This document shows, piece by piece, positions 1,023 to 19,694 of a stretch of DNA of 32,273 bases. Position 1 is the stretch's first letter; each line of letters starts with the position of its first letter. The notes below the pieces were generated by a model, which saw only the letters and a program-made list of their open reading frames with translations, was not told the origin of the DNA and ran no database searches. The DNA comes from Candidatus Bathyarchaeia archaeon. GTDB taxonomy: Archaea > Thermoproteota > Bathyarchaeia > Bathyarchaeales > Bathycorpusculaceae. The stretch lies in assembly GCA_050012755.1 (NCBI GenBank), contig JBEKGO010000038.1, positions 1-32,273 of the forward strand, written 5' to 3'. The translations under genes and the position numbers were made by a program.

Positions 1023-1044
1023 GTGGCTGGGAATAAACACCTAC
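1023..1044 (-). promoter_or_regulatory. 22-bp inverted-repeat operator (degenerate)
   Basis: In gene orientation GTAGGTGT-ttattc-CCAGCCAC; homologous to the site at 19673. Confidence 0.6.
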
Positions 1045-1150
1045 AGCTTCATTACTCTTATTATTTCATCTTTTAAGAAAGCATATTTGCTTTATTGAAT
1101 TATTAATAGGCTCAGTTCATTTCAAACATGAAGTCAATCCATTGGCTAGC

Positions 1151-1657
1151 CTAGAAGTGATTCATGATAAAATCCCTAACGGTTCTATGACTAGCCATGA
1201 TTTCGACGATCTTTTTTGTAACTTTGGTTAATTGCGCATCAAACAGCCTTGTTATAACCAACGAAAGCGCAAACGTAAATATGCCAAAGAAATAAAATGT
1301 AATAGCGTTTATTTTGCCAAGGTACAAGATGAAAAAGAATGTAACGGTTGAAGCTATCAGTCCCATGATGTAGGATCTTATAATGAAATAAAGTCTCTGC
1401 AACCACGTAGAAAACAATAGAACCTTGATTACGGCTCTTTTCTCGATCTCGCTTTCAGCTCCATTGCTGTGCTTTGTTTCTATCTGTTGTAATACTCTTT
1501 TTGCGTAATGTATGTCTGCTAAATGCAATATTTTTTTTGCATAACGAGCGTCTGATAAATTTGTGGCAGTTGCGCTTTCAAGCTCTTTCAAGATCCTTTG
1601 TGCTATTTCGTCTATTTCGGCATCTACTCGGTCTACTTTAGCATCTTTAGTTACCAT
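1151..1657 (-). CDS. Hypothetical membrane protein with 2 C-terminal TM helices
   Basis: 168-aa ORF, AGGTGA SD upstream, hydrophobic hairpin near the C-terminus. Confidence 0.75.
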   Translation of the reverse strand: MVTKDAKVDRVDAEIDEIAQRILKELESATATNLSDARYAKKILHLADIHYAKRVLQQIETKHSNGAESEIEKRAVIKVLLFSTWLQRLYFIIRSYIMGLIASTVTFFFILYLGKINAITFYFFGIFTFALSLVITRLFDAQLTKVTKKIVEIMASHRTVRDFIMNHF

Positions 1658-2315
1658 TATCTCACCTGAATATTCTAGTATCTTATTCCATCTGTGTTTC
1701 TAAATCTTTGTCTATAAAAAGAGCAACACGTATACACGTCTACTCCTAATCTTACCCACGCACGCTCCCGTGAATGTAATGTCTGTCTCTTTGTTACCAT
1801 TTCAGTCACTGTCTCAGTCAGTCACGCATACATGCAATATTGTTGCGCGGCGCGCGCTGGGTATAGGCGTAGTTGTAGTGTGTGGGGGATCTTGAGGTGT
1901 TTTTGGGATAGATTTATCGAAAAAGTGAAAAGCCACATTAACGCTCTACTCACATCGTGAGCCATACTTCAGTCACTTTCTTAGTACAGAGCGATTGAGG
2001 TATGGTTTACGATAAAACATTAACAGCTCAAAGCACCTTCGAAACTACTGATCCAGCAATACAATTTATTTATAAAGAAAGACTCTCGTTTAATTTGTTG
2101 CAGACGGAATATGACAATTAACGGACCCAAGTCGAGTGTTTGGCACATTGCTACAATCGGAGTTGTAACAACCATGATGGCAGAAGATTACTCTGAGAAA
2201 TCTATAAGTGTGGAAAAGATGAAGAAGCCGATTGATCAATCGATTCCTCCGATAAAGTGGACGACTTCTCGTTTATTTGCAACGGTCCCGCTATATGTAG
2301 AGTGAGGTGTGAAGC

Positions 2316-3428
2316 ATGAGTCAGGAGACCGCGGATCCGACTAAGGCACCGACGGGCGGCTTTCAGCTGCCCAGATCGGTCATAAGGTGGATAGCCGTGG
2401 GCTTGGTTCTAACATCCGCCGTTGTTATCATTATATCGTTATATTCGGGCGTGAAGTTCTCGGATTTTGAACGTATCGGTTTCTTGGCATTCGGCCTAGC
2501 AGCTACTGCATCTGTGGCCAGACTCCTCGTCCAGATCGTGCGGTTCAGAGTAATAACGGTAGGCTTGGCTGATGACCCGAAAATGGATTTGAGTGGCTTG
2601 GCGCTTACCAGAGTAAGCAGCGAGTTCATCTCGATAGCGACACCCGCATCGAGTACGGGCGTCTTTCTACGCACTGCCTGGCTATCGAGCAAGGGGGTGA
2701 CCGGCGGCAAGGCGCTCTGGATTGGCTATTTTGAGGTGCTCATCGAGGTATATGTTGGTGTTGGTCTCGGAATTGCTGGGGGCGTATACGCCTACTTGAA
2801 GGGCGCGGTCGTCTTGGGGTCAACAATTGCTGTGATTGCGTTGGTCGTGCTTATTGGGTACACGATCATTTTCATAATTCCGGCTAGGAGAGCCGTCAAG
2901 GTTCCTCATTTTGTTTTCACGATTGCGGAGTATCTGGTAGGTGGCCCAAGAGCTACAGCCCTTTATCTTCACGCTGTCGTCGGCTCTCTGAATTTTTCAG
3001 TTTCCGCGCGCGCAATTCTAACGAGAGATAAACTACCTGTAGCGCTAAAGGCTGTTGTTCTGACAATCGTTGAGGATGTGTTGGAGGGTGCGACTCTCTG
3101 GTTTGTGCTAAACGCCGCGGGCTTGAAGATCGACCTGCTTTCCTCAACCATTGTAGTCTTCGGTATCGACACCATCGCTCAACTCCCGATATCCATAGGC
3201 GGCGCGGGAATCACGGAGCTCACCATACAGGGCTACCTGACTGCAGTCTATGGATTCTCCTCGTGGGCGTCCGTTATAATATGGAGAGTCGCCACTTATC
3301 AAGTCCTACTAGCGACAACTGGTATCGTGTTTCTGTTCTTCGTGCGCAAGTATACGAGGCATGTCGAGAAGCCACGTGAAGTGGAACATCAGAAGGATGC
3401 TAAGGAATTCTTGCAAGATGGGGGATAG
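2316..3428 (+). CDS. Lysylphosphatidylglycerol synthase TM / UPF0104 flippase-like membrane protein
   Basis: Multi-TM protein with family motifs S.ATP, LPISIGGAGITE and IIWR..TY; GAGGTG SD. Confidence 0.85.
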   Translation: MSQETADPTKAPTGGFQLPRSVIRWIAVGLVLTSAVVIIISLYSGVKFSDFERIGFLAFGLAATASVARLLVQIVRFRVITVGLADDPKMDLSGLALTRVSSEFISIATPASSTGVFLRTAWLSSKGVTGGKALWIGYFEVLIEVYVGVGLGIAGGVYAYLKGAVVLGSTIAVIALVVLIGYTIIFIIPARRAVKVPHFVFTIAEYLVGGPRATALYLHAVVGSLNFSVSARAILTRDKLPVALKAVVLTIVEDVLEGATLWFVLNAAGLKIDLLSSTIVVFGIDTIAQLPISIGGAGITELTIQGYLTAVYGFSSWASVIIWRVATYQVLLATTGIVFLFFVRKYTRHVEKPREVEHQKDAKEFLQDGG

Positions 3429-3911
3429 AAAGGGATATCCCAGAGTAGAGCATTTCAGAGCAAGAACAACGAGCAGGAATCACGCATTGAGGCCGTAGTA
3501 CTTCTACTCCGCGGGAATCATCTAGAACGCGTGGTTTCCAGCGAGGCTGATCATTGCGAGGGCGTTCTCGAAGGTTATCATGAAGCCAATCATCCGGGTG
3601 CAGGCAATCGGGGCCACGTTTCAAATGCCCACAGGGTACTTCAGAATGTAGCAAGGAATCAAGCATAGAGTGTAGTCTACGCATCAACATTGCAGCATGC
3701 GCGCAATCCAATATCCTGGCGCTGCCAAAATGCTGAAATAGTTGTGTTGTTTATATTTTTCGTGGCATACTTTGCTATTGCCGCTGTACTAAACCTATAA
3801 AGGCTAGAGTTGAATGAAAATCAATAGAACGAATTTGATTCGTGTTTCTACGGCTGATCTTTCTAATACCCTCGCCCGTTCATCCACCAAGAACAAGTTC
3901 AAGGCTGGTCG

Positions 3912-4241
3912 TTGAATTCATTGTCAGCAACTTCAGGGATGGAAGACTTTGCAACCACGTTTGCAAATGCGGTGCACGGTGGACTGGATAAGGTTCTAGG
4001 TCAGAGCGGGGCGGCGGCGGTCTTAGCTAACATGAAGATGACTAGTAATCTTCCCGACCCGGCTGAATTCCATAAGAAGTTGCTCGCACTTTTCGGCAAA
4101 GAAGCAACACTTTCGCTGGAAAGATCGATAGTTAGGGATCTTGTGACGAGGCTCAAGTGGGCGCTAGAACTTTTGAGTATAGAAGGACCCTTCGATTTCA
4201 ACACGACCATGCTCAAGATACAGAAGGGTATGAAAAAATGA
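3912..4241 (+). CDS. Small alpha-helical protein, DUF3227/NitrOD5-like partner of KaiC-type ATPases
   Basis: Pattern AV..GL.KVLG.SG...V.....P.EF...L..LFG.....LER.I...L. Stop codon overlaps the next start (ATGA at 4238-4241). Confidence 0.6.
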   Translation: MNSLSATSGMEDFATTFANAVHGGLDKVLGQSGAAAVLANMKMTSNLPDPAEFHKKLLALFGKEATLSLERSIVRDLVTRLKWALELLSIEGPFDFNTTMLKIQKGMKK

Positions 4242-5671
4242 CGACTAGAAAAAGCCCAGGATTGAAACCCCTTGTTCAAGTGGATAGCCAAGGGGGTACT
4301 GCTGATTCTGGAGCAGATGATCTGGCGGAGACACGGATAGCTGCTGTACTTGGTCTGAAACAATTCACGCAGCGACCCGTCAGAACCTTACTCGTCAAAG
4401 GTCTCGCAGGTACTGGCAAGACAACAATCGCCCTTGAAATTCTCAAGGCAGCGGGCAACGGGAAAGGTGCGTACATATCCTCAAGAGTTCCAAAAGAACT
4501 CCTTGAAATGCAGATACCAGCCATGAAGAAGACCTTACAGAATCAAGAGTTCTTGGACATTAGGCTCGAGGACGCGACAGCAGCACTGGATCTTGTCATC
4601 AAACTGACGGGGCCAAAGAAAGTCAGAACCATTGTGTTTGATAGTTGGGATGGCCTCGCGAAGGAATTGGACCCGAAGGAAAGGTTACGCGCCGAGAAGA
4701 CTTTGATGGCCCTTGCAAATAATTCCGGCGCCCAACTTGTCTTTGTTAGCGAGGAACCCGGCGCCACGACCATAGACTATCTCGTCGATGGTATCCTCGA
4801 GTTGGTGAGGGTTGAAGAACAAGACCGTGCGGTACGAGAATTTATCATACACAAACTGCGTGGGACAAAGATACCCCAACACAAGTATCTCTTTACACTT
4901 CTAGAAGGAAAATTCACTTTCTTCGGACCCTACGCCGTTCCCGATTACTCGAAGGTGGACAAGTTTGTTCGAAAGCCTGACATCGATGGATCCTATTCTT
5001 TCGGGAGTGGGGCTCTGGATAGACTGTTTGGAGGCATAATTCCTGGGAGCACCATGACTATCGAATACGATGAGAATGTTCCCTACTCTGCGCTCAGAGC
5101 AATCGAACTGCCTCTCATCATCAACTTTCTGTCGATGGGAAGGAGTGCGATCCTTCTCCCATTACCAGGCGCAAATGACGAGCGAACGAACTCGATTCTG
5201 ACCAAAACGCTTGGCGAAAGTATCGTAGGCGACCGACTCCGCATTCTCAACGTAGTCAGAACTAGCGACCTTGAGACCACGCAATTGCGGAAAAATGTCA
5301 CTCCCAATGAAATCCATGAAATAGTAACTAGAGAGACGACAAGACTGCGGGAGAAATCGAAGGACCGGTCCGTGTTACTCGTAAAGTCCGTGAGCGCTCT
5401 AGAGAACTTGTTCGCTTCTGATTTGGATTCACTGCTCGAAGTGACCTCCCAAGAGATAATCACCCTCGCACAGTCGCATGATGTGCACATTCTCTTCTTG
5501 GCAAAGGATTCGCCTATCCGGTCGCGCATCCTCTCGATGAGTTCCAGTTACGCAAAATTGTTCGTTAGAGATGGCACCGTTCTGATGTTTGGCGTGAAGC
5601 CTCACACTGGGATTTACGTATTACAACATCTCGAGGATCCCACTTCTCCATCACTAACCCAAATGGTGTGA
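4238..5671 (+). CDS. GvpD/KaiC(RAD55)-like P-loop ATPase with two domains, the second degenerate
   Basis: Walker A GLAGTGKT, Walker B IVFDSWD, DYLVDG..L and KLRG motifs. Second domain begins FGSGALDRLFGGI but has no Walker A. Start reassigned to the ATG at 4238 (ATGA overlap). Confidence 0.85.
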   Translation: MTTRKSPGLKPLVQVDSQGGTADSGADDLAETRIAAVLGLKQFTQRPVRTLLVKGLAGTGKTTIALEILKAAGNGKGAYISSRVPKELLEMQIPAMKKTLQNQEFLDIRLEDATAALDLVIKLTGPKKVRTIVFDSWDGLAKELDPKERLRAEKTLMALANNSGAQLVFVSEEPGATTIDYLVDGILELVRVEEQDRAVREFIIHKLRGTKIPQHKYLFTLLEGKFTFFGPYAVPDYSKVDKFVRKPDIDGSYSFGSGALDRLFGGIIPGSTMTIEYDENVPYSALRAIELPLIINFLSMGRSAILLPLPGANDERTNSILTKTLGESIVGDRLRILNVVRTSDLETTQLRKNVTPNEIHEIVTRETTRLREKSKDRSVLLVKSVSALENLFASDLDSLLEVTSQEIITLAQSHDVHILFLAKDSPIRSRILSMSSSYAKLFVRDGTVLMFGVKPHTGIYVLQHLEDPTSPSLTQMV

Positions 5672-5807
5672 TCCATTTACACATCCATCTATCATATTGT
5701 TTAGGTTCCAAGCCTGATTTCGTGCATAAGCGGTCTGTATAAGAAGCGCGCGCAAAGTTTAGTCTTTCTCAGCCTTTTTAACTCATTAATGTCGTTCTTG
5801 CTTATTA

Positions 5808-5969
5808 ATGCTAAAAAATAATCATAATTTATCTAATGAAGTTATAACAGAAGAAATTAAAGAACAAAAAAACAATTCTCTCGGAGTGACTGTGGGAAAA
5901 CAAGCAATCAACGTGGGAGTCAAAGGTTCCAGCGAAAAAACAACAAAAAAATTTTCAAAAACAAAATGA
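5808..5969 (+). CDS. Small hydrophilic ORF (53 aa), possibly the N-terminal half of a frameshifted gene
   Basis: MLKNNHNLSNEVITEEIKEQKNNSLGVTVGKQAINVGVKGSSEKTTKKFSKTK; ATGA overlap with the next ORF. Confidence 0.4.
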   Translation: MLKNNHNLSNEVITEEIKEQKNNSLGVTVGKQAINVGVKGSSEKTTKKFSKTK

Positions 5970-6115
5970 ATAGTGACAAGAAAGAATATAATGCTAAACG
6001 GGATAGTGACAAAAAGTCGTTCGATGATGCAAGCGACAGTGACAAACGCGACTATGAGGACAAAAGAGAGCGCGACAAGAAAAAGTTTAAGAAGAAAGAG
6101 GGTTCCATGAAATAG
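5966..6115 (+). CDS. Highly charged 11-mer repeat peptide (hydrophilin/LEA-like, 49 aa)
   Basis: M-NSDKKEYNAKR-DSDKKSFDDAS-DSDKRDYEDKR-ERDKKKFKKKE-GSMK; 33-nt periodic AGTGACAA. Confidence 0.6.
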   Translation: MNSDKKEYNAKRDSDKKSFDDASDSDKRDYEDKRERDKKKFKKKEGSMK

Positions 6116-6510
6116 CAGACTTGGCAAAGAGAAAAGTTATGATTTAGTTAAAGAGAGGGCATATTTACATATGCTGTTTCAAACGGACTTCTAAAGTTTA
6201 CGTATTGTCTTTAGAACTTTTCGCAAACTTATTTCCTATGGGCTAGCCCAAGTTATTGTTCGAGTTTCTTTAGTAGAACACTAACGCTGCGAAATTCAAT
6301 TGTTGGTAGTAATTGTCTATTGGATAATGAATGCGCCAAGAAGTCAATTTTGGCACACGCAAGCATTTAATCATAGTGTTGGGCAATTAACTCTTATTCC
6401 TTAGTTCAACGAGAGCAATCCTGTCACAGGCTTGAATATTATTGTGGTTCCTGAATATAAGATTCAAACCTACAAAACCAAATAGGCTCTCTTTAAAGCA
6501 AAGGCTTATT

Positions 6511-6532
6511 GTCGGTGTGAGATAGCAGTCAC
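6511..6532 (+). promoter_or_regulatory. 22-bp inverted-repeat operator upstream of csbD
   Basis: GTCGGTGT-gagata-GCAGTCAC, then 5 nt, then TTTAATATA. Confidence 0.7.
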
Positions 6533-6579
6533 ATATGTTTAATATAATCACAAAGGCACTAGGTTTATAGTGAAATTTT

Positions 6580-6744
6580 ATGAGTAAAGATGAAGTTAAA
6601 GGTAAACTCAAAAAGGATGAAGGTAAAATCCGCGTAGGCGTGGGCAAAGTAACTGGCAACACAGGTCAAATAATTAAAGGCGAAGCTGAAAAAGTCAAAG
6701 GAAAAATCCAAGAGGACGTAGGCAAAGCCAAAAGAAAACTCTAA
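6580..6744 (+). CDS. csbD: CsbD/YjbJ-family general stress protein (54 aa)
   Basis: MSKDEVKGKLKKDEGKIRVGVGKVTGNTGQIIKGEAEKVKGKIQEDVGKAKRKL shows the classic D.VKG....G......G..TG.......G.....G.IQ...G pattern. Absent from the ORF track. Confidence 0.92.
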   Translation: MSKDEVKGKLKKDEGKIRVGVGKVTGNTGQIIKGEAEKVKGKIQEDVGKAKRKL

Positions 6745-6864
6745 CTAATCGCAAAAACCACTGTTCAAGGCTTCGATAGTCAAACCTACTGCTGGCTGCT
6801 AAGCACATAGCTTCCCTCCTTTTCTGTCTTTTGTGTTGTGAGCGAGAGAAGTTGGCGCTGAGTT

Positions 6865-6886
6865 GTGACCGTTAACCCACAGTTAT
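6865..6886. promoter_or_regulatory. Orphan copy of the 22-bp operator
   Basis: GTGACCGT-taaccc-ACAGTTAT followed by acatgcATTTATG; no clear downstream gene. Confidence 0.45.
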
Positions 6887-7131
6887 ACATGCATTTATGG
6901 GCTGAACACGTAATAAAAAGTTAAGGTTGAACGTGTTAAAATATTCCATTCTTTCCATATCTCTTCTGATGAGAGTTGAATTAACCGATATGATTGCTAA
7001 AGGGATTTGATTATAAGTGGAAAAAGGAGAAATGCAAGATACCTCTTTGACACAATTATCAATTACATTCTGTTTGTCTTTATCATGTTGTCATGGCGCT
7101 AAAGAAACTCGACAACAAGAAGTGGCGCTAG

Positions 7132-7914
7132 TCATATCTTGGCTCGTTCTGTTATTTCACGACCCTCAAAGATAGACAGTCTAGGTTTTCCGCAGCTTAG
7201 ATCTACTACCGTGTTATGGACGGTTGAGTCTGTGACCCAACTGCCAGTGTTCACGACATTCTCAGCTTCGTTTATGAAAGGGTGATGCGTGTGGCCGAAG
7301 ACCAATATTTCGCCTTGTTTGATTTTTGAGAGTGCAATGTGCTCTACATCTTTCAGAATTTGGGATAATCGTTTTTCCGGCGGTTGCGTTACTCCACCGA
7401 AGAGGTCTTCAAAGTTCTCTATCGGGTCGTACATAACATGGCACAGGGCTTCCATAACTGCAGCTTTCTGTTGAGGGTCAAACTCGAGACCATGGCATAT
7501 CATGTAAGTGTATTTCCCATCTGTGAACTTCAAGTCTTTCGCAAAACTGAACGGGTAAGAATGCCCCCGCATTTGAAGGACATGGTAATCATGATTCCCC
7601 GCGACGTAATGTACTCTCATCTTCTCCTTCAGTCTGATAACCTTCTGCACGAAATCCCAGTTTTCCAGAAATACTCCAGAAGCGTCTCGTCTCCACATGT
7701 CCACAATGTCTCCCAGCAGCACCAAGTCGGTAGTTCCCTTATCTGACTGCAGACTGTCCAGAAACCTGTTAAACGACTCTTTATCCGAATTCTTGTAGCC
7801 CAGATGGACGTCCGAGACTACTTTAAGTTTCAGCGGCTTACCTTCAGTAGCTGAAAATGAGCAGCCTTGTTTCTCACTCATTTCACCGAGAGTATCCATG
7901 AATGAAACCGTCAT
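7132..7914 (-). CDS. Calcineurin-like metallophosphoesterase (LpxH-like)
   Basis: Motifs SDVHLG, LGDIVD, GNHD, HG and FGHTH. Confidence 0.9.
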   Translation of the reverse strand: MTVSFMDTLGEMSEKQGCSFSATEGKPLKLKVVSDVHLGYKNSDKESFNRFLDSLQSDKGTTDLVLLGDIVDMWRRDASGVFLENWDFVQKVIRLKEKMRVHYVAGNHDYHVLQMRGHSYPFSFAKDLKFTDGKYTYMICHGLEFDPQQKAAVMEALCHVMYDPIENFEDLFGGVTQPPEKRLSQILKDVEHIALSKIKQGEILVFGHTHHPFINEAENVVNTGSWVTDSTVHNTVVDLSCGKPRLSIFEGREITERAKI

Positions 7915-8444
7915 TAGCTAAACCTCAAAAATGGAATTACATATAAAATTAAGTCGGAGGTCTATTTGAGACTTCTTGTTGCTTTCTTAAGATGGCATCC
8001 TTAATCCTTGCAGACGATAACCTTCTTTCCACTTTGCCTGTCCCTGTTTTTCTCCGTCCCTTATCGTCAGTTTCGCTTCTTTGTTCATAATTTTCTCAAT
8101 TAAACGATGTTTTTTAATATGCCCGTCAAGGCAAACTTCAAACATTTTTCTCTCACTTCTACTTTTCTACTAACATTTTCCAACACTGTTCATCAGTTCA
8201 AAAGCTTTGTTTCCTTGTTCTTTTTTGGAAGCTTCACCTATCGCCTGTTTCTGTTTCTAGAAAATCTCATGCTACATAACCATCATTCGATAGGGAGGAA
8301 AAGTAATCGTCAAGCCAATAGAACACTTTTTGCTTTCTTTCAAATTGCTAGAATTTCCAAAGAATATCCACGACCAGATTACTTTTTGTTAGCTTTTAGA
8401 AGAACCTGATTTGCCAAAACAAAACAAAGAAGTGTGGTAGAATC

Positions 8445-9120: not shown

Positions 9121-9321
9121 TTATGGTTTCTTTGGCTTTATACCTAGCTTAACGTTGACTTCTACGATGTATTCTTTTTCTTGTTTTCCAACAGCAAAAT
9201 GCCAGTCCTTTACTTCCACATCCATATCTTTAAAATGATTTACGAGGGAATCTTTGTATTCGTTGACGGTTTGACCTATTTTTTGCAATCGCTCGGTAAT
9301 GTCAATATGTTTCTCAGTCAT
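9121..9321 (-). CDS. Small hypothetical protein (66 aa)
   Basis: GGAGGTG SD; preceded by the operator and TTTAAGA box. Confidence 0.8.
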   Translation of the reverse strand: MTEKHIDITERLQKIGQTVNEYKDSLVNHFKDMDVEVKDWHFAVGKQEKEYIVEVNVKLGIKPKKP

Positions 9322-9386: not shown

Positions 9387-9408
9387 GTGGCTGTTAACTA
9401 ACAGCAAC
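9387..9408 (-). promoter_or_regulatory. 22-bp inverted-repeat operator
   Basis: In gene orientation GTTGCTGT-tagtta-ACAGCCAC, then 5 nt, then TTTAAGAA. Confidence 0.75.
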
Positions 9409-9725: not shown

Positions 9726-9747
9726 GTCGGTGTGGGCTCACATTCAC
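9726..9747 (+). promoter_or_regulatory. 22-bp operator upstream of the PRC-barrel gene
   Basis: GTCGGTGT-gggctc-ACATTCAC, then 5 nt, then CTTAACT. Confidence 0.6.
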
Positions 9748-9821
9748 ATTAGCTTAACTCTGTCGATGGTCTCTTATTGGTTAGTTCAAATTATGAGCGT
9801 TTAAAGGAGGGATATACAAGT

Positions 9822-10112
9822 ATGAGAACTAGAGAGTTTATAAATAGAAGTGTGTTTGCGTTAGATGAGAAAATCGGTACCGTTAAAGGTATAGAAGTTG
9901 ATCCGGACGAGTGGAAAATAACTCATCTTGAAATCGAATTGAAAAAAGAAATAGCTGAATCAGTGCTTGGTGTAAAGAAAGGCGGAGTGCGAAATATGTT
10001 GGCCGTTTCATCTCTGGAGAAAGGGGTTGCCCGCTGGACAGACAATGGACTGCACTTAAAAGTTTCAAAAGATCAACTTCACATGTACCTTAGACCAGTA
10101 GTTAAGACTTAG
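9822..10112 (+). CDS. PRC-barrel domain protein
   Basis: EFINRSVFALDEKIGTVKGIEVDPDEWKITHL matches the PRC pattern. AGGAGG SD precedes the ATG at 9822. Confidence 0.85.
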   Translation: MRTREFINRSVFALDEKIGTVKGIEVDPDEWKITHLEIELKKEIAESVLGVKKGGVRNMLAVSSLEKGVARWTDNGLHLKVSKDQLHMYLRPVVKT

Positions 10113-10414
10113 TTAAGCAGTTTGCCATGAACGTGTGGTTGACGAGCGCTGTTATTATTGTGATACTTTGGTTAATTGGATTCTTTTCTTTGCCAGACGT
10201 AGGCCCGTTGATACACATAATGCTCGTAATAACTGTAATCATACTAGTCACTTGGCTGTTGACCGGCAGAAAGCTATTAAATAGCCACTTTTCTTTTTTT
10301 TGTTAATCTTAATCCAAACCGAAAAGTTAGATTGGATCACCTTTCCAACGTTTTCTCACAATTAAGCTACTTGGCGTATGGATGACCCGAAATTTTCGGA
10401 AAATTAACAACCTT

Positions 10415-10436
10415 GTTACTGTAGCTCTCCAGTCAC
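10415..10436 (+). promoter_or_regulatory. 22-bp operator plus TATA box with no intact downstream CDS
   Basis: GTTACTGT-agctct-CCAGTCAC, then 5 nt, then TATTTATC. Confidence 0.65.
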
Positions 10437-10487
10437 AAAGTTATTTATCATTAAAGATAAGTATTCATATTGAGGAAACAACTAAGC

Positions 10488-10579
10488 TTTGGCGGATCAG
10501 CGTTAGACAAGACGTGAATGATTTATAATACCCCACTTATCGAATGTTCGCGTCCTTTTAACTGCGTAGGTCCGCCAAA
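10488..10579 (+). ncRNA. Candidate structured small RNA (long imperfect hairpin)
   Basis: Nested stems tttggcggatc/ggtccgccaaa, gttaga/tttaac and gacgtgaat/gttcgcgtc with G-U pairs on the + strand; lies downstream of an operator and TATA box. Confidence 0.35.
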
Positions 10580-10587
10580 ATATATTC

Positions 10588-10818
10588 TTAAATCGCGCGC
10601 ATTTGTGTTTTGGATTTGGTCAAGAAAATATTTGTCATCATTTCGTTTTTCCATAAAGTTATTGTTCGTATTTCGGCTCCACATTCGCAAGTAATGATGG
10701 GCAAAAGTTCTTTCAGGTAGCTATCAACATTAACGTTTTTGCTTTCTGATATGTTTGCAATTATTGCGGACTCGGTTGACAACAGTTTCTGAATTTTCTC
10801 AATTCTATTCCGACTCAT
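10588..10818 (-). CDS. Small hypothetical protein with a CECG motif (possibly truncated)
   Basis: LLPIITCECGAEI zinc-knuckle-like half site with no second ligand pair; GGAG SD. Confidence 0.5.
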   Translation of the reverse strand: MSRNRIEKIQKLLSTESAIIANISESKNVNVDSYLKELLPIITCECGAEIRTITLWKNEMMTNIFLTKSKTQMRAI

Positions 10819-12613: not shown

Positions 12614-13417
12614 TCAGGAAGAAATCGGTTGTGAAGATTTCGTTAATTCTGTGATGCGATTTTGAACCGTTTTGGACACCTCTTCCCTCAATTTTTCGTC
12701 GTCGTGGATCCATAAATTAATCTGGTCAATTCTTTTGGATAGTTCTTCATCGCCAATGGTGTTCTTGAACCATCTTTGAAAATCTTGCCGCTGAAAATGA
12801 AACGTGACTGATTGAAGGGGTACTGTTTGGAGTTTTGCAGCGAATTCAACAGTGCTACTTGCAGTTATTCCTGTGTTTTTTCTTAGCTCTGTGAAAAATT
12901 GAAAAGCATTTTCGAAGGGAACCGTATCGAGCAGGTTTATGTTTGGCGGTAGGGATTGAAAATTAAGCTTCTTTCCAAGGTCTATTGCCCAATCCCTTAC
13001 TCTGTTCATGTTTAGATTGTCCATGACGGCTTTTCCCTGTTTAAGCAGGCAGCCTCCAAAAGCGGTAACGTCAATGGGCTTGAGCGACTTGTTTTTGGCA
13101 AGTACTTTTTTTGTGTTGTCTGCAGTGCTTTGCGCTTTCGGGTTTTCAGCGTCTTCACAGCAGAAATAGAGTGCAACTTTTTTGTCTTCAAAGTTCTTCT
13201 CCAAAAAATCTACGGCTTCATCGTAAACACTCGTACTTTTTACGCCACCGCCAACGATGATGTTTTGGTATGGTGTAATGTCCGGTGGACCATTTTGAAG
13301 ATCTACGACAGTTACATCCGTGTTGTAGGTTGTTTTTAGCGTATCAGCTATGACACGTGCTGCCTGGGCATTTATTCCAGTTTTTGTCGAATAAACAATT
13401 AGTGTTCTTTCTGTCAA
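12614..13417 (-). CDS. Flavodoxin-like domain fused to a C-terminal DUF5752-like domain
   Basis: N-terminal LIVYSTKTG..IIVGGGV..AFGG. C-terminal VP.ENAF.F....TG..A.S..EF...L..VP..SV.FH..R.DF.RW....IGD.EL. Confidence 0.85.
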   Translation of the reverse strand: MTERTLIVYSTKTGINAQAARVIADTLKTTYNTDVTVVDLQNGPPDITPYQNIIVGGGVKSTSVYDEAVDFLEKNFEDKKVALYFCCEDAENPKAQSTADNTKKVLAKNKSLKPIDVTAFGGCLLKQGKAVMDNLNMNRVRDWAIDLGKKLNFQSLPPNINLLDTVPFENAFQFFTELRKNTGITASSTVEFAAKLQTVPLQSVTFHFQRQDFQRWFKNTIGDEELSKRIDQINLWIHDDEKLREEVSKTVQNRITELTKSSQPISS

Positions 13418-13470
13418 TGTTCTTCACTTTCTCTGTTCTATATTTAGAACGTGCGTGCTTAATTGTGTGT

Positions 13471-13492
13471 GTGACTGCGAAGCCACAGCTAC
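13471..13492 (-). promoter_or_regulatory. 22-bp operator upstream of flavodoxin 1 (divergent from YihY)
   Basis: In gene orientation GTAGCTGT-ggcttc-GCAGTCAC, then acacaca, then ATTAAG. Confidence 0.75.
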
Positions 13493-13723
13493 AAGCCAAA
13501 ACACACTTGAACAGTAAATGTCTCTTTTCACTATTTTGCAGCAAGCTGAAACAATTCAGGCAGGTGAGAAAATTTTTGCGCGTTAAACTACTAATCTAAG
13601 ATTATACACATAACATACTAAAAGGACAACAAAAGAAAGATATATGCCAAACTTAATTTCTTGCTTAAGCATAATATAAGAGAGTGTTTTATTAAAATCA
13701 TTTTACCAGATGGACTAGTTAGT

Positions 13724-14581
13724 ATGGATCGAAAACAATTCGCATCTCTTCTTAAAGAATCATTCAGTGAATGGCAAGTCAATAGCGTAAGCTTGCGGTC
13801 TGCGGCGCTCGCATTTTTCATCATTTTACCGCTTCCTTCACTTCTACTTATCCTAATGGTAGTTTCTTCTCAATTCCTAGGTCAAACCCAAGCCTTCCAA
13901 CAATTAATAGCACAGATAAGCGCCGTCGCCGGACCAGCAGTTGCAAACTTAATTACTCAGGTTCTTCAAAGTAGCAAAACTCCCTCCACTTCATTTTTGG
14001 CTACCGTCACATTTGTGGGTTTTTCTGTCGCCGGCGTAATCGGCGCGTTCCAAGTGTTGCGAAATACGATGGACATCGTTTGGAAGATATCGCCTCCGCC
14101 AAAAAGGCGGACCCTCATGACAAGAATAAGACGTAATATACGGCCGTTTCTGCTTGTTTTTTCCGTTGTAATCATCATTATTGCTTGGACAGTAATAATG
14201 ACTGCAATCTTAAGCTCCGTTGGCAGCGTAATAGTACCTATGACTGGAGGTTTAAACTCGTTATTTCTAAGAATACTTCAGATCGTGCTCTCTTTTATTC
14301 TAGCGACAGGTCTGTTTGCCATCATCTACCGGGAGGTGCCTGATACAGACATTCAATGGGGAGACGTCAAGATAGCAGCGGTCATGGTGGCAGTTGTGTT
14401 CAGCATTACCAATGTGTTGTTTTCTTGGTATATTCAAACTTTCTCTATCACATCGGTGGCCGGAGCCGCTGGAGCAATCATGATTCTGTTATCATGGGTT
14501 TTCATAATGAACCAACTCATGCTTTTTGGCGCTGAATTCTCAAAAACATATGCTATTCGATTCGGCTCACAAAAAAAATAG
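13724..14581 (+). CDS. YihY/virulence factor BrkB family membrane protein
   Basis: SAALAFF..L.LP.LL, IY..VPD..I.W.D and GAAGAI...L.W.......L.GAEF motifs; start reassigned to MDRKQ. Confidence 0.92.
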   Translation: MDRKQFASLLKESFSEWQVNSVSLRSAALAFFIILPLPSLLLILMVVSSQFLGQTQAFQQLIAQISAVAGPAVANLITQVLQSSKTPSTSFLATVTFVGFSVAGVIGAFQVLRNTMDIVWKISPPPKRRTLMTRIRRNIRPFLLVFSVVIIIIAWTVIMTAILSSVGSVIVPMTGGLNSLFLRILQIVLSFILATGLFAIIYREVPDTDIQWGDVKIAAVMVAVVFSITNVLFSWYIQTFSITSVAGAAGAIMILLSWVFIMNQLMLFGAEFSKTYAIRFGSQKK

Positions 14582-14800
14582 TTTGCACAGACAGCATAGG
14601 AAAACTTGTGGCAGCAATAACCATGACGCTATCATTGCCACACTGCTCAGCCTATAGTTTACGCTTTTTGTTCTGATTCACAGTTGATTACTCTCTGGGA
14701 GTGAAAATCGCTTATAAAGCATAGATAATCTCACTAACCTTAGCCTTTATACCATGAAAATTGGTCTATTAAGAAAGCTTCAAAGCATGGATTTAGATAG

Positions 14801-15130
14801 CTAAGGAGATCTTAATTGTTTTCTTATGATAATGTAAAGCACCAAGAGGAGCAGTACACCCATAACACCTGAAATGAGACCCACGATGTACCAAGCTTTC
14901 CATGCTGGCATGAAAGTGCTAAGATATTTTAGCGAACCGATTAGAACGAAAATAGAAGCAGACCCGATTAATGCAATTACCAAGGCCAACAAAACACTTA
15001 TAATTATTCCAATAATCAGAATCTTTTGGACGCGTTTCTTTAGAGCAGGCTTATTTTCATTCACATATTCTTTGAGAATGGCTTTTATATCATTGAGCAA
15101 TCCATAGATAATTTCCTTCAAAAGCGGCAT
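14801..15130 (-). CDS. Two-TM membrane protein, phage-holin/DUF1469-like
   Basis: Amphipathic N-terminus, TM1, MPAW.A..IVG, TM2 and basic tail; GGAGG SD. Confidence 0.6.
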   Translation of the reverse strand: MPLLKEIIYGLLNDIKAILKEYVNENKPALKKRVQKILIIGIIISVLLALVIALIGSASIFVLIGSLKYLSTFMPAWKAWYIVGLISGVMGVLLLLVLYIIIRKQLRSP

Positions 15131-15203
15131 CTAACCATAACCCCTCCATACGTATTCCGCACAAGTCCGGCTGAAAAGATTTTCGTCAGAACCGCCCAAG
15201 TGA

Positions 15204-15611
15204 TTATTTGGGAGTGGCAGGAGAATCAGGTGCAGTAGAGGTGCTATCATATCCGGTTGAAAATGGCGCTTGGTATTTTCCAATGTTCTCTCTGATGATG
15301 CCATATCCTTTTTCTGCTTCGGAATTAGACAAATCACCTAAGGATAGCGGTTCTCCGCCGAACCTAAGTGTACACTTGATTGTTGACCTCAGAACTCCCT
15401 TGTCCAACACCACGTTAGCTATGTCCTTGTAATTGTAATCTGTATAATCCTTCTTCAAACCAAGCGCGTGAGGATGCCGCAGAATCATACGTTCGTTCGT
15501 AAAGACTACAGAGTCAATATTAATCTTCGGATGGTAGATTTTCTGCTTAATATATAACTCAACCTTCTCGTTTGGACCAAGTATTTTCGCTATATCATCT
15601 GGAGAACTCAT
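15204..15611 (-). CDS. Bacterial PH-domain protein
   Basis: LGPNEKV, DSVVFTNER.I and Y.Y.DI..V...KG.....I motifs. Confidence 0.85.
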   Translation of the reverse strand: MSSPDDIAKILGPNEKVELYIKQKIYHPKINIDSVVFTNERMILRHPHALGLKKDYTDYNYKDIANVVLDKGVLRSTIKCTLRFGGEPLSLGDLSNSEAEKGYGIIRENIGKYQAPFSTGYDSTSTAPDSPATPK

Positions 15612-15675
15612 AATTTACAACCAACTTGGAATTCTTAACTGTACAATTGTACCTAATGAGGGGATAAATAGTCTT

Positions 15676-15697
15676 GTGACTGTAAGACTACAGCGAC
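15676..15697 (-). promoter_or_regulatory. 22-bp operator upstream of the PH-domain gene
   Basis: In gene orientation GTCGCTGT-agtctt-ACAGTCAC, then 5 nt, then TATTTATC. Confidence 0.8.
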
Positions 15698-15847
15698 AAG
15701 CAAATTGTGATTATTTAGTTAACTCCTCACAGGCGTCCAATACCAGAGCGAGATTTATTTGTCTATAAGATATATACGTTAGATATCCCATTTTCAAAGG
15801 GCTTTCGCACAAGTATCGAAAAAAGAAAAAATTAGGAATTATTAGGC

Positions 15848-16804
15848 TTAGGTCGCTGCCGTTGTGCAATCAACGACTTTGGCCATTGGCGCATTCTTCT
15901 TCACTGATGAGATGCCGGTTTCGGCTGCCTGCTTTGATAAGTAGGATTGGCTTACTGCAATTATCTCTCCGTTGGCAGCTTTCAGATGGAAACGATACCT
16001 ATCAGGAGCATTGAATTGAATTTCAAAAATTGGGTCTTGATCAATGCCAGCTGCGTGCGTTAGCACACCATCTGCGGTAGATAGATCAACGATTTTGGCG
16101 ATTGGGGCATTCTTCTTTATTGAATCAATACCTGTTATGGCTGACTCTTTTGCTACGTAGGATTGGCTTACTGCAATTATCTCTCCGTTGGCAGCTTTCA
16201 AATGGAAACGGAACTTATTAACAGAATCAAGTATAATCTCGAAAACTCCTTCTGTTTCTTTCGCTTTTGCAGTCTTCTCAACTACTGGCATCACTTTAAC
16301 AGGTGGGACCACCGGTACCACTTTAACAGGTGGGATTGGTTCACGCGCGACAAACTTCTCGCCCAGCTCTTTTGCCCAATCTTTTATCCTGTTCATATTT
16401 AAATCGTCCATGACGGCTTTTCCCTGCTTAATCATACAGCCTCCAAAAGCGGTAACGTCAATAGGCTTGAGCGACTCATTCTTGGCAAGTACTTTTTTTG
16501 TGTTGTCTGCAGTACTTTGCGCTTTCGGGTTTTCAGCGTCTTCACAGCAGAAATAGAGTGCAACACTTTTGCCTTCAAAGTTCTTCGCCAAAAAATCCAC
16601 AGCTTCATCGTAGACGTTTGTACTTTTTACGCCACCGCCAACAATGATGTTTTGGAATGGTGTAATGTCCGGTGGACCATTTTGAAGATCTGCAATAGTT
16701 ACATCCATTTTGTAGGTTGTTTTGAGCACTTCAGAAATGGCATATGCTGCCTGTGCATTTATTCCAGTTTTTGTCGAGTAAGCTATTAGTGTATTTCTTG
16801 TCAT
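15848..16804 (-). CDS. Flavodoxin-like domain fused through a Pro/Val linker to two YegP/DUF1508 domains
   Basis: N-terminus nearly identical to 12614-13417; two copies of FEI......(F/Y)RFHLKAANGEIIAVSQSY..K..A..GI.S.KKNAP. Confidence 0.9.
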   Translation of the reverse strand: MTRNTLIAYSTKTGINAQAAYAISEVLKTTYKMDVTIADLQNGPPDITPFQNIIVGGGVKSTNVYDEAVDFLAKNFEGKSVALYFCCEDAENPKAQSTADNTKKVLAKNESLKPIDVTAFGGCMIKQGKAVMDDLNMNRIKDWAKELGEKFVAREPIPPVKVVPVVPPVKVMPVVEKTAKAKETEGVFEIILDSVNKFRFHLKAANGEIIAVSQSYVAKESAITGIDSIKKNAPIAKIVDLSTADGVLTHAAGIDQDPIFEIQFNAPDRYRFHLKAANGEIIAVSQSYLSKQAAETGISSVKKNAPMAKVVDCTTAAT

Positions 16805-16858
16805 TTTTCTTCATTTCCTTGTTCTAAGTATAGCACTCGCGAGCGCTCTTTAAGCTGT

Positions 16859-16880
16859 GTGACTGTAGGGTTACAGCGAC
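16859..16880 (-). promoter_or_regulatory. 22-bp operator upstream of flavodoxin 2
   Basis: In gene orientation GTCGCTGT-aaccct-ACAGTCAC, then 5 nt, then TTAAAGA. Confidence 0.8.
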
Positions 16881-17005
16881 AACCGAATTATGATTATTTC
16901 ATTGACTCTGCAACCTGTGACCTTTACATTCGGCATTTACTTCCTTTGCAAGATTTGGATAAATTAGGGAGCACTTTTTCGAGGGGCACTCTCAATAGAG
17001 TAGGT

Positions 17006-19552
17006 TTAGAATTTTACGCGTTTGTAAAAAATTCTTTTTACGACTTCACCTGAGACTAAATAGAGAACTACGATTGCGACCATTACAATAACGACCGAAA
17101 GAGGGACTGACGTAAATCCGAAAAGCCGTCCGAGCAAAGTGAAAGGCAAAATAACTGTGGCACCAACAATCAATAAGGTAGTCAGTAGAAGGTATTTTCC
17201 TGGGACACTTTTAAAGAATGGTCCTCTGCTTCGAATAACGAGCACAATTAGACTTGCTGAAATGACCGATTCTATGAACCAGCCGGTTCTAAAAAGGGTC
17301 ATTGGGCTCTTAAAAACAAAGATTAGTACTCCGAAGGCGAGATAGTCAAACACCGAACTTAAAATGCCGAAAACTATCATGAAATTGCGAATGAAGCCAA
17401 CGTTCCAGCGGCGTGGATGTTCAACCATTTCATTATCCACATTGTCTGTGCCAATTGTCGTCTCTGGAAAATCTGTCATCAAATTGGTAAGCAAAATTTG
17501 CCTAGGAAGCAGTGGTAGAAAAGACAGAAAGAGAGATGCGCCTGCCATGCTAAACATATTTCCGAAATTTGCACTTGTTGCCATAAACACGTACTTTAGA
17601 GTGTTGGCAAAAGTTTTCCTTCCTTCTTTCACGCCATTTGCAAGCACACCTAGATCCTGTTCAAGCAAGACAATATCGGCAGCTTCTTTGGCAACATCTA
17701 CTGCGCTTTCGACCGAGATACCGACATCTGCTGCATGAAGAGCAGAGGCATCGTTGATTCCATCACCCATGTACCCCACCACATTCCCGGATTTCTTAAG
17801 CGCGAGAATAATCCTTTCCTTCTGGTTTGGTTCAACCTCAGCAAAAACGTCAACCTCATTTACTTGCTTAAGCAACGCCTCATCACTCAGGGCACGAAGA
17901 TCTGAACCCGCTAGTACTCTTGGATTGGGAAACCCAACTTGTTGACTAATGCTCGCTGCAACAAGTCGGTTGTCTCCCGTAACAATTTTCAGTGAAATCC
18001 CAAGACGCTTTAACTCGCCAATCGTCTCGGCGATTTTAGGCTTACTAGGATCGAAGAGAACCAGAAAACCCAAGAAAGTCATTCCCACCTCACTATCTTT
18101 CGAGATGACTTTTTCAGATCCGAGGTCTTTGTAAGCAATTCCCAGAACGCGAAAACCCTTGCTGCTGAACTCTTCAAAGCGTTGCTGGATCTGCTGTTGT
18201 ACACCGCTGATTTGCACTGCGGTTCCTTCTGAAGTTTCAACTGAACCGCAAACATCAAGGACGTTTTGCAACGCGCCTTTGGTCACCATCAGATTTTTAT
18301 TGTCCTTTGATACCAGGACGCTGAGGCGTTTGCGGATAAAATCGTAAGGCACCTCGTCCAGTTTTTGGTAACCCGACAAATCAAGTTTGTTTGCCCGAAT
18401 CGCTTCATCGATCGGGTTTGTGAATCCTGTTTGGTAAAAAGCGTTGAGGTACGCGTAAAGCAGGGCTTTTCCGCTTTGGTTACCGTTGAAATCAACGACG
18501 GACTGTATTTTTATCGCGCCTTCGGTGAGAGTGCCGGTCTTATCCGAGCATAGAACGTTCATGCTGCCGAAGTTCTCAATTGATGCAAGTCGTTTAACAA
18601 TCACTTTTTGGGTTGCCATGATCTTGGCTCCTTGGGCGAGGTTAATGCTGATGATAGCGGGCAGAAGCTGTGGGGTCAGTCCAACAGCGAGTGCCAAAGA
18701 GAAAAGAAGTGATTCCAATACTGAACGCGCGAAATACACGTTTATGGCAAAGGTCACGACGACCAGTACAAGTGTTACTTCCATAAGGAGATACCCGAAA
18801 TGCCGGACTCCATGTTCAAATTCTGTTTCAGGTGGTCTAAGTTTTAATCGCTCTGAGACTTTGCCGAACTCCGTTTTTGAACCTGTTCCTACAACAATGG
18901 CCTGTGCGCTGCCGCTAACTACATTAGTTCCCATGAAAAGACTGTTTGTCCGCTGACTAAGTGATGTCTCTGGCGGAAGAACTCCTGCGGTTTTCTCTGC
19001 CGGGTAGGTTTCTCCTGTCAAAGATGCTTCGTTTACGAAGAGATCTTTTGATTCCAGAACTATGGAATCTCCTGGGATCAGGTCTCCAGCGTTGAGGATT
19101 ATGACATCTCCCGGTACAATCTTTTCAACTGGAATGTCCGTTTGATTTCCGTCTCGAAGAACGGTCGCTTTTGTCTGCACTATTGCAAGTAGCTTTTGGA
19201 TGGCATTGGCTGCTCCTCTTTCCTGCCAGAATCCAAGAAGGCTGCTTATCAGTATGATCGTTACGATAATTATTGCATTCGTGGGCAGAGCACCCTGTGA
19301 AATATCGAGGTATAATGACAAGCCAGCTGCAAAGATGAGAATAATGATGAGTGGACTCTTGAACTGAGTTAACAGGAGCGTGAGCGTGTCTGATCTTTTC
19401 TTGGGCGTTAGAAGATTGGAGCCGTATTTCGTGAGTCTCTTTTCAGCTTCGTCACTAGTCAAACCTTTCGATGTCGTCCGGAGTTGTTGAAGAGCCTCAG
19501 AAGTGGGGATACTCCAGAATGACTGATTGTCTTGGATATTTTGGCTGCCCAG
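17006..19552 (-). CDS. mgtA: Magnesium-translocating P-type ATPase (P3B)
   Basis: DKTGTLT, TGET, GLTPQLLP, DEVPYDF.RKRLSV, GDGIND and SANFGNMFS motifs. The frame extends upstream of 19462 through FWSIP..EALQQL.T...GLT; probable CTG start at 19552. Confidence 0.93.
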   Translation of the reverse strand: MGSQNIQDNQSFWSIPTSEALQQLRTTSKGLTSDEAEKRLTKYGSNLLTPKKRSDTLTLLLTQFKSPLIIILIFAAGLSLYLDISQGALPTNAIIIVTIILISSLLGFWQERGAANAIQKLLAIVQTKATVLRDGNQTDIPVEKIVPGDVIILNAGDLIPGDSIVLESKDLFVNEASLTGETYPAEKTAGVLPPETSLSQRTNSLFMGTNVVSGSAQAIVVGTGSKTEFGKVSERLKLRPPETEFEHGVRHFGYLLMEVTLVLVVVTFAINVYFARSVLESLLFSLALAVGLTPQLLPAIISINLAQGAKIMATQKVIVKRLASIENFGSMNVLCSDKTGTLTEGAIKIQSVVDFNGNQSGKALLYAYLNAFYQTGFTNPIDEAIRANKLDLSGYQKLDEVPYDFIRKRLSVLVSKDNKNLMVTKGALQNVLDVCGSVETSEGTAVQISGVQQQIQQRFEEFSSKGFRVLGIAYKDLGSEKVISKDSEVGMTFLGFLVLFDPSKPKIAETIGELKRLGISLKIVTGDNRLVAASISQQVGFPNPRVLAGSDLRALSDEALLKQVNEVDVFAEVEPNQKERIILALKKSGNVVGYMGDGINDASALHAADVGISVESAVDVAKEAADIVLLEQDLGVLANGVKEGRKTFANTLKYVFMATSANFGNMFSMAGASLFLSFLPLLPRQILLTNLMTDFPETTIGTDNVDNEMVEHPRRWNVGFIRNFMIVFGILSSVFDYLAFGVLIFVFKSPMTLFRTGWFIESVISASLIVLVIRSRGPFFKSVPGKYLLLTTLLIVGATVILPFTLLGRLFGFTSVPLSVVIVMVAIVVLYLVSGEVVKRIFYKRVKF

Positions 19553-19672
19553 AGAAATCGCCTGCCAATAGGTTGATGCGCCTAAATTAATTAATCGAAA
19601 ACAGGTCTATAAACAATTTATCGTTGCTTAAGTTTAGAATGGTTGGAGATTGATGCATAAGACGATAAAGCT

Positions 19673-19694
19673 GTAGCTGTTTATTCACAGTCAC
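19673..19694 (+). promoter_or_regulatory. 22-bp operator upstream of Lmo0937-like copy 2 (divergent from mgtA)
   Basis: GTAGCTGT-ttattc-ACAGTCAC, then 5 nt, then TTAAATA. Confidence 0.8.

Follow-up and report, generated by a model that had tools for sequence, protein, structure and literature searches.

A 22-bp inverted repeat upstream of TATA boxes marks a candidate regulon in Bathyarchaeia of peat and soil

The inverted repeat and its sites in the window

We analyzed a 32,273-nt stretch of a contig from a Candidatus Bathyarchaeia archaeon (JBEKGO010000038.1, GenBank assembly GCA_050012755.1; hereafter the window), in which a 22-bp inverted repeat recurs in front of genes. A preliminary description of this DNA had reported ten sites. 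Using the pattern GTnrCTGT-N6-ACAGTCAC (22 nt) on both strands of the window at up to two mismatches, we found 14 strand matches at nine positions (6511, 6865, 9387, 9726, 10415, 13471, 15676, 16859, and 19673), where 0.09 matches are expected from 100 dinucleotide shuffles; the shuffle maximum was 1, and none of the 100 reached 14. The tenth site, at 1023, is found only at three mismatches, and with it the ten-site repeat proves real, an inverted repeat that recurs at several promoters far more often than chance allows. One further three-mismatch match, at 5886, is without an A/T box downstream and looks like a chance occurrence. Past position 19694 neither the pattern (at two or three mismatches) nor a position weight matrix finds a site in the window, which agrees with the earlier statement that there is no match beyond 20 kb, and the genes in that part are ordinary housekeeping genes. 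In the window the inner part by itself, CTGT-N6-ACAG, exceeds expectation no more than about twofold (23 vs. 11), so the outer GT/CAC bases matter.

Families were assigned to the window's genes by Pfam searches of its 54 open reading frames (ORFs), and the site scores, in bits, are those of a 34-nt model described below. Perfect pattern matches lie at 15676..15697 (−, 37.6 bits) before a bPH_3 gene (15204-15611, −), at 16859..16880 (−, 37.9 bits) before a gene fusing flavodoxin_5 with two DUF1508 domains (15848-16804, −), and at 19673..19694 (+, 34.1 bits) before a DUF5670 gene (19737-19901, +), where the site probably also drives the gene of a 124-aa membrane protein (19947-20321). Site 9726..9747 (+, proximal half ACATTCAC, 38.1 bits) precedes a PRC-barrel gene (9777-10112, +; likely start, ATG 9822) and a DUF5670 gene (10127-10306, +), site 6511..6532 (+, 33.1 bits) a CsbD-family gene (6580-6744, +), and site 13471..13492 (−, 34.1 bits) a flavodoxin_5 plus DUF5752 gene (12614-13417, −). 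Site 9387..9408 (−, 35.7 bits) stands before the gene of a 66-aa protein of no assigned family (9121-9321), whose orthologues in two relatives, L016 and L022, also have a motif site. Site 1023..1044 (−, 29.8 bits), with the weak box CTAAAGT, faces an Lmo0937/DUF5670 gene (817-981, −; ATG at 975), and site 10415..10436 (+, 34.8 bits) is followed by a conserved structured RNA candidate. At nine window sites a TATA-like box follows the ...CAC half by 5 nt, and in the window 47-74 nt separate the core from the start codon. Because the site pairs 1023/19673 and 13471/16859 front paralogous genes, the window holds about eight independent promoters, not ten. The three Lmo0937/DUF5670 genes (817-981, 10127-10306, and 19737-19901) are recent paralogues, two of them with nearly identical 5' leaders, and the two flavodoxin_5 fusions have a common N-terminal domain and different C-terminal domains (DUF5752 vs. 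two DUF1508).

Site 6865..6886 (+), which fails the 34-nt model, calls for a correction: it faces the + strand with a degenerate ...TTAT half (proximal half ACAGTTAT, followed by CATTTAT). Its orthologues are the sites at 12524 in L016 and 4616 in L021, both before intact GT2 glycosyltransferase genes, and the alignment with these two loci takes in about 120 nt of leader (window 6912 onward). The GT2 gene of the window is a 52-codon 5' remnant (7017-7175) that runs into a convergent phosphoesterase gene (7132-7914). By this comparison the site is a decaying promoter relic facing the + strand, before a truncated glycosyltransferase gene.

Promoter architecture, conservation and target genes

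For comparison we used 80 loci of about 20 kb each, taken from a one-genome-per-species scan anchored on bPH_3. The closest loci (79-88% identity) belong to metagenome-assembled genomes from peat, bog and soil titled Candidatus Bathyarchaeota or Bathyarchaeia, and the more distant ones to Gagatemarchaeum, Nitrososphaerales and others; homologues of the bPH_3 protein, where named, come from a Bathyarchaeia or Nitrososphaerales archaeon. These titles, the presence of a TrmB-family regulator, and the motif at thermosome genes support the earlier assignment of the host to the archaea. The core pattern (up to two mismatches) occurs at 80 positions in L001-L022 (336,365 bp) and at 9 in L023-L080 (960,932 bp), and four of these nine fall in L059. 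A 34-nt matrix of the 22-nt core, a 5-nt gap and a 7-nt TATA box, built from 82 oriented hits and applied at 14 bits, gave 125 strand hits (120 distinct positions) in the window and 24 close loci combined (L001-L022, L029, and L059; 409,457 bp), against 0.05 hits in each block shuffle of this set and 4 hits in the other 56 loci (920,113 bp); the motif thus stands far above background frequency. At least one site is present in 24 of the 25 sources, and the site of L006 is mutated.

Sites were oriented by their better-matching strand, with tied hits left out, which yielded 87 core-only hits, and the consensus of the oriented hits is the imperfect palindrome GTyGsTGTrr..yyACAkTCAC. An all-A/T tetrad (WWWW) lies at +7 to +10 past the ...CAC end in 83 of the 87 and at the mirrored upstream positions in 7, so that the placement of a TATA-like box about 5 nt beyond the ...CAC half, as first described for the window, holds across relatives. 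The box is of the type yTTAAnT or TATTTAT and lies 5 nt downstream of the ...CAC end; its centre is about 20 bp, or two helical turns, from that of the site, and among the 100 hits with scores of 24 bits and above, 95 are followed by an ORF start at 20-90 nt (TATA box and transcription start site, TSS, being predicted). Three columns outside the search pattern are conserved as well: A23 (+1; 0.91), A25 (+3; 0.76), and T30 (0.89). The element is a promoter-linked, orientation-fixed inverted repeat upstream of the TATA box and gene start, and it abuts or slightly overlaps the place where transcription factor B (TFB) reads its recognition element (BRE).

The two halves differ systematically, GT[T/C/A]G[C/G]TGT distally (with G avoided at position 3; 0.02) and ACA[G/T]TCAC proximally, a difference somewhat inflated by the omission of tied, near-perfect palindromes. 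The N6 spacer had been called free; the arms and their spacing are indeed kept, but within the spacer, positions 9-10 of the repeat are mostly G/A and positions 13-14 mostly T/C (rr..yy), so the symmetry extends inward to TGTGr-NN-yCACA. Orthologues of the bPH gene without the palindrome have promoters of the CAAAAG-ATAAATA type, and AAA[AG][GC] with an A/T box occurs in 20 of these 58 compared with 2 of the 22 with the palindrome, which suggests that palindrome promoters are without the A-rich BRE of other promoters in these lineages and would be weak unaided. Expectation maximization, unseeded or seeded, on 300 motif-free upstream regions of the close loci returned only T-runs or A-runs in place of a general BRE/TATA model, and its use for the TATA-box offset was confounded by the two box types, so the plain A/T-tetrad count was used instead.

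Site 15676 is kept before the bPH_3 orthologue in 22 of the 80 loci. Across these orthologues the alignment is perfect over the palindrome and the box CTATTTATC, but upstream of the palindrome no alignment is possible. Information content, computed for six orthologue groups, is 1.4-2.0 bits per column in the arms and TATA box and 0.2-0.7 in the flanks. Conserved arms and TATA box within drifting flanks indicate that the element is under selection of its own and is no leftover of recent duplication. The earlier proposal of an operator-like element abutting the BRE position is thus strengthened by its conservation in many genomes, before the same and other stress-type genes, and we infer that the element marks one co-regulated gene set, maintained within a single lineage of archaea from peat and soil.

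The ORFs behind 129 strand hits (125 from the close set and 4 others) were clustered by family into 41 downstream clusters, 17 of them with at least two sites and 15 in at least two loci; the earlier claim that unrelated genes lie behind the repeat therefore stands for the relatives and has to be narrowed for the two paralogous pairs of the window. The bPH_3 family leads with 24 sites in 23 sources, although, as the search anchor, it is not independent. It is followed by a 108-aa membrane protein (12 sites in 12 sources), PRC-barrel proteins (11 in 10), Lmo0937/DUF5670 (9 in 8), a lysine-rich protein of 45-50 aa and a 140-aa membrane protein (8 in 8 each), and together these families make up the conserved core. 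Smaller groups include a CxC protein of about 105 aa and a C2H2-like 54-aa protein (4 each); GT2 glycosyltransferases, pyruvate phosphate dikinases (with weak sites), fusions of flavodoxin or fasciclin with DUF1508, and the 66-aa protein (3 each); the thermosome (2, plus a third site from the pattern search; 3 relatives); and an HTH_45/Sso10a-like winged-helix protein (2). An ice-binding-like protein and a cupredoxin are among the single cases. CsbD, which the preliminary description had emphasized, stands behind the motif only in the window, as a singleton family, and the emphasis shifts to the families of the core.

The gene set is dominated by small membrane or hydrophilic proteins without an assigned role, plus the chaperonin, and by its gene names it fits a stress or dormancy programme; stress is, to judge from these sequences, the probable signal of the regulon. 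Ice-binding-like proteins are encoded at 10417-11463 of L012 and 7948-9567 of L018 (Pfam Ice_binding, E 1e-55 to 1e-72), the former directly after bPH_3 and the latter with a strong motif site of its own, which hints at a freezing-related role. Small HTH_45 proteins at 7243-7476 of L015, and at 6974-7219 and 3398-3682 of L021, resemble the NCBIfam Sso10a chromatin family below its cut-off; two of the three have a strong motif site upstream, and the window has none of these proteins. They could be chromatin-changing members of the regulon or an alternative regulator. Many of the bPH_3 homologues of about 160-165 aa have an N-terminal zinc ribbon (PF13240), which neither the protein of the window (135 aa) nor those closest to it possess.

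Behind site 10415 there is no credible ORF. Directly downstream lies a long-hairpin RNA candidate of about 95 nt (10486..10580, +), with a minimum free energy of -36.2 kcal/mol (z = -5.8), which is conserved in L007, L016, L019, and L020, each time about 50 nt after a motif site; among its 29 pairs, two are compensatory in five sequences. Rfam searches of the window and of 10380-10700 gave no RNA family, the sole match being a chance-level snoRNA on the other strand.

A tblastn search of the relatives' regulon families against the window found no HTH_45, C2H2-like, 108-aa or 140-aa membrane or lysine-rich gene; the only matches were one to DUF1508 and a shortened CxC copy at 10588-10818 (−). 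This ORF of 76 codons matches only the first 50 or so residues of the relatives' 101-112-aa CxC protein, whose genes carry weak motif sites, and it is possibly frameshifted or truncated, with a divergent C-terminal part. Other genes of the window encode a BrkB/YihY protein (13661-14581, +) and a P-type ATPase (17006-19462, −). The region 2000-6000 is richer in G+C (0.46-0.49 vs. 0.36-0.43 in most of the window), has no motif site, and encodes an LPG-synthase-like membrane protein and a KaiC/GvpD-like ATPase (4157-5671, +). NCBIfam searches of 24 unassigned window ORFs returned nothing over the cut-offs.

A candidate regulator and the mode of control

The left edge of the window cuts a TrmB-family gene, of which the 3' part (175 codons; 1..528, +) remains; the preliminary description had missed it, and we regard its product as the most likely regulator. 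The fragment matches Pfam Regulator_TrmB (PF11495) at 19.5 bits, below the 22.2 cut-off, and the N-terminal winged-helix part of this copy lies before the window start. Homologues of its 175 C-terminal residues occur in 15 close loci at 69-81% identity (higher in shorter fragments), and in 11 of these loci they are intact ORFs, with a full length of 261 aa. The TrmB winged helix (PF01978) is found in all four full-length orthologues (54-57 bits vs. a 25.6 cut-off), and PF11495 exceeds its cut-off in three of the four (29.3, 24.8, and 23.5 bits); the latter match spans only profile positions of about 4-137 of 233, which means that the protein is without the sugar-binding half. Among solved structures TrmBL2 is the best match, its PDB chains aligning end to end (E = 1e-6). 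Scores against NCBIfam equivalogs are far below cut-off for TrmBL2 (29.5 vs. 530), TrmBL1 (26.8 vs. 650), and TrmB alike, which points to a separate subfamily with TrmBL2-like architecture.

In relatives the regulator gene lies mid-cluster, typically in the order site, 108-aa membrane gene, regulator, site, PRC barrel. Among the other 56 loci its sole homologue is in L056, with 30% identity overall and 29 of 60 residues identical in the winged helix-turn-helix (wHTH), where the recognition-helix stretch is nearly identical to that of the close relatives. Two of the four motif hits outside the close set lie within 140 nt of the start codon of this L056 regulator, and within one of these two sites lies a TATA-like CTATATAC, some 30 nt ahead of the ATG. 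This independent co-occurrence with the motif is the main reason for preferring the TrmB-like protein, and on balance we lean slightly to the view that a TrmBL2-like member of this family is the factor that reads the repeat. In the close relatives the regulator's own promoter is AAAAC-TTAAATATAAA, without the palindrome. Repeated CGAAAAG/GCGAAAA words, conserved about -110 to -60 from the TrmB-like ATG in L005, L008, L012, L018, and L002, form a stretch just upstream of the regulator's TATA box that may be a separate control element. Some TrmB-like homologues are split over two or three frames (L007 11559-12085, L059 11731-12256, and L012 12831-13354), that of L012 being a second, broken copy beside an intact one; these would be frameshifts, assembly errors, or pseudogene copies.

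That a protein binds the repeat seems to us highly probable, and the reading that we favour overall, and consider likely, is that the palindrome is the site of a dimeric winged-helix factor, built into a special class of archaeal promoter. A wHTH dimer would bind the 22-bp palindrome directly upstream of the BRE position and, once bound, would help TFB and the TATA-binding protein (TBP) to assemble, a positive control modelled on TrmBL1/Tgr, Tar, TFB-RF1, and Ptr2; the element would couple clustered small stress-type genes into one regulon, and the factor would be the 261-aa TrmB-family regulator encoded inside the cluster. The balance tips modestly toward activation rather than repression because the spacing is invariant and helically phased and the A-rich BRE is absent. 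Sites upstream of BRE/TATA are described as going with activation for TrmBL1/Tgr, Ptr2, and TFB-RF1, and sites over the TATA box or TSS as going with repression (PMC4158304); the upstream positions of the Tar site (PMC6737238) and the OxsR motif (PMC9426492) are likewise described as activating.

The same operator and regulon might instead be under negative control, with a repressor that blocks TFB at the BRE and is released under stress, as for Phr or for TrmB at malE. We think this unlikely, though it deserves serious weighing. The proximal arm ends 5 nt from the TATA box, so that a footprint would reach the BRE, which the site itself may overlap, and a TFB-blocking repressor fits this placement equally well; the thermosome genes carry the site, and chaperone genes carry operator sites in repressor-run heat-shock regulons; and the L056 site around the TATA-like box before the regulator's ATG has the layout of autorepression. 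TrmB is described as repressing at the BRE/TATA of malE and TrmBL1 as repressing with a site over the TSS (PMC4158304), and TrmBL2, to which the candidate is closest among solved structures, is labelled a global repressor (PMC3031468). Steric blocking, however, needs neither the invariant spacing to the TATA box (83/87) nor the fixed orientation that we observe; the A-rich BRE of neighbouring and orthologous promoters is absent, which suggests weakness without help; and known repressor sites, as presented in PMC4158304, overlap the TATA box or TSS and are not on the upstream side. A different departure from the activator model would have a specialised TFB paralogue recognise the proximal half and the conserved A-N-A as an atypical BRE and so select promoters in the manner of a sigma factor, whether or not a separate dimer occupies the distal half. 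The better conservation of the proximal half, its two systematically different positions, A23 and A25 at the BRE position, and the strict TATA register would suit such a paralogue, and control of this kind by general transcription factors has been proposed for heat shock at hsp5 of Halobacterium (PMC2396416). The two-fold symmetry over 22 bp, which reaches 27 nt upstream of the TATA box and far past the BRE, nevertheless makes it improbable, as does the lack of any TFIIB or TBP family gene among the scanned ORFs (the 54 of the window, 30 further ORFs, and 69 of 115 ORFs of four relatives, the rest being of families already identified).

A last set of readings takes the repeats for RNA hairpins that act as terminators or processing sites, for recombinase core sites (8-6-8), or for a mobile promoter cassette present in several copies. 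The arms could pair into an 8-bp stem closed by a 6-nt loop, site 15676 comes directly after the stop codon of the gene 15848-16804, and the arm-spacer-arm layout resembles that of recombinase core sites. Against these readings, the TATA box stands in fixed register at 83 of 87 sites and an ORF start follows at 95 of 100; several sites lie between divergent genes, where no transcript ends; flanks differ among sites and species while the arms stay, which speaks against recent copying; synteny is kept across relatives; and none of the 54 window ORFs has a Pfam match to an integrase, recombinase, or transposase family. Position, flanks, and the genes present led us to reject all three readings, which we regard as very improbable.

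Several points weigh against the activator model with its TrmB-family factor. The matrix was trained on the same loci that were counted, L029 and L059 joined the close set after the motif had been seen there, and many sites are orthologous, so that there are fewer independent events than the counts imply. The weak-BRE argument draws on one orthologue family (bPH), the regulator's own promoter, and a crude regular expression. The palindrome is absent upstream of the TrmB-like genes of close relatives, where the best core scores are negative, so that classical autoregulation through the site is not supported there. The linkage of the TrmB-like gene to the cluster could be plain synteny, and the gene is absent from the 20-kb neighbourhoods of L003, L004, L010, L011, and L014, all of which have sites. 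Other DNA-binding genes recur nearby, namely RHH_6 (50 aa) in 11 loci, a zinc-ribbon protein likewise in 11, and an HTH_45/Sso10a-like gene near the cluster has the motif upstream in 2. TrmBL2 is moreover described as a chromatin protein as well as a global repressor (PMC3031468).

A more far-reaching form of the activator model would have a TrmBL2-like master activator of a sigma-B-like response to stress (cold, freezing, or drying) in a widespread lineage of peatland archaea, bound to the 22-bp palindrome at its fixed two helical turns from the TATA box and recruiting TFB to BRE-less promoters of a regulon that includes the thermosome, ice-binding and chromatin-type proteins and a new small RNA. 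This form is doubtful; if true, a hard-wired class of activator-dependent promoters would stand in for an alternative sigma factor. That the element is real rests on unusually clean evidence, and support for what triggers it is weak.

Very little is known of how uncultured archaea of soil and peat regulate their genes, and few archaeal stress regulons have been tied to a defined DNA element. The present system adds a well-delimited element, a promoter layout with fixed spacing, about 15 recurring target families, most of them without a known function, and a named candidate regulator. It also gives a first functional handle on orphan protein families and one RNA as putatively co-regulated with the thermosome, CsbD, and an ice-binding protein.

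Comparison with known regulons

A literature search, outside which subscription journals and supplements fell, found no description of the motif, in keeping with the earlier remark that it was not recognised as a described one. Papers that combine the half-site string with archaea were, among those examined, unrelated by title and the start of the abstract; those that combine CsbD and archaea with general stress and promoters were bacterial only; and the Gagatemarchaeaceae paper, in the parts available, deals with neither this lineage nor the motif (PMC10640624).

From its sequence and placement, the element appears to belong with the archaeal regulon operators upstream of BRE/TATA, such as the Thermococcales glycolytic motif (TGM, TATCAC-N5-GTGATA) and the Tar and OxsR sites. 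The TGM was reportedly, in 2006, a lineage-restricted palindrome that defined a regulon, with a TrmB-family gene nearby. Like the present repeat, it is described as an inverted repeat found by sequence comparison, restricted to a lineage, and placed before functionally linked genes, and it is read by a TrmB-family dimer (TrmBL1/Tgr) encoded near its targets (PMC4158304); the repeat here has a TrmB-family candidate nearby. We rejected identity with the TGM, since the consensus here is GTyGsTGT-N6-ACAkTCAC, and the arms (GTnGnTGT/ACAnTCAC in 22 bp), their spacing and their orientation all differ. The targets here are of stress type and not of sugar metabolism, every site here is upstream of the TATA box at one distance, and the candidate factor, unlike TrmBL1/Tgr, is without the sugar-binding subdomain.

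Similarly, Tar of Thermococcus kodakarensis (TK0271, TGGACA-N8-TGTCCA) is described as a proven activator with a 20-bp palindrome upstream of BRE/TATA at several operons (PMC6737238), although its sequence is another, its targets are three amino-acid biosynthesis operons, and its host is a hyperthermophile. OxsR of Haloferax volcanii, of the single-domain TrmB family, governs an archaeal stress regulon in which a motif upstream of BRE/TATA means activation, according to PMC9426492; its motif is CG-rich and it senses through a thiol, whereas the candidate here has an added effector-type domain.

In CIRCE/HrcA, the bacterial system, the repressor site lies over the TSS or promoter. Both this system and the Phr regulon of Pyrococcus have inverted-repeat operators common to chaperone or stress genes, as here, but they are repressor systems of unrelated sequence, and Phr sites are described as lying over the TSS or promoter (PMC4158304). 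The factors Ptr2 and TFB-RF1, as cited in PMC4158304 and PMC6737238, are closer in layout, with a site directly upstream of BRE/TATA at weak-core promoters. They differ from the present case in having each been studied at one or a few promoters and in the families to which they belong. Ptr2 is Lrp-type, and we know of no regulon-wide fixed spacing reported for either factor.

In gene content the closest likeness is to the SigB regulon of Bacillus and Listeria, which overlaps the present set in CsbD, the lmo0937-family membrane protein, and small hydrophilic or membrane proteins. The csbD gene is SigB-controlled. Expression of lmo0937 is described as falling by about 3 log2 units in a Listeria sigB mutant (PMC7690807). 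The control parts have no homology, a sigma factor that reads -35/-10 in the one case vs. a TATA/BRE promoter plus palindrome in the other, and we rejected SigB-type alternative-sigma promoters for this DNA, the promoters being of the TATA-box type in an archaeon. Taken together, the comparison suggests a convergence, in which gene families that are under SigB in bacteria would here be tied together by a eukaryote-type promoter and an operator.

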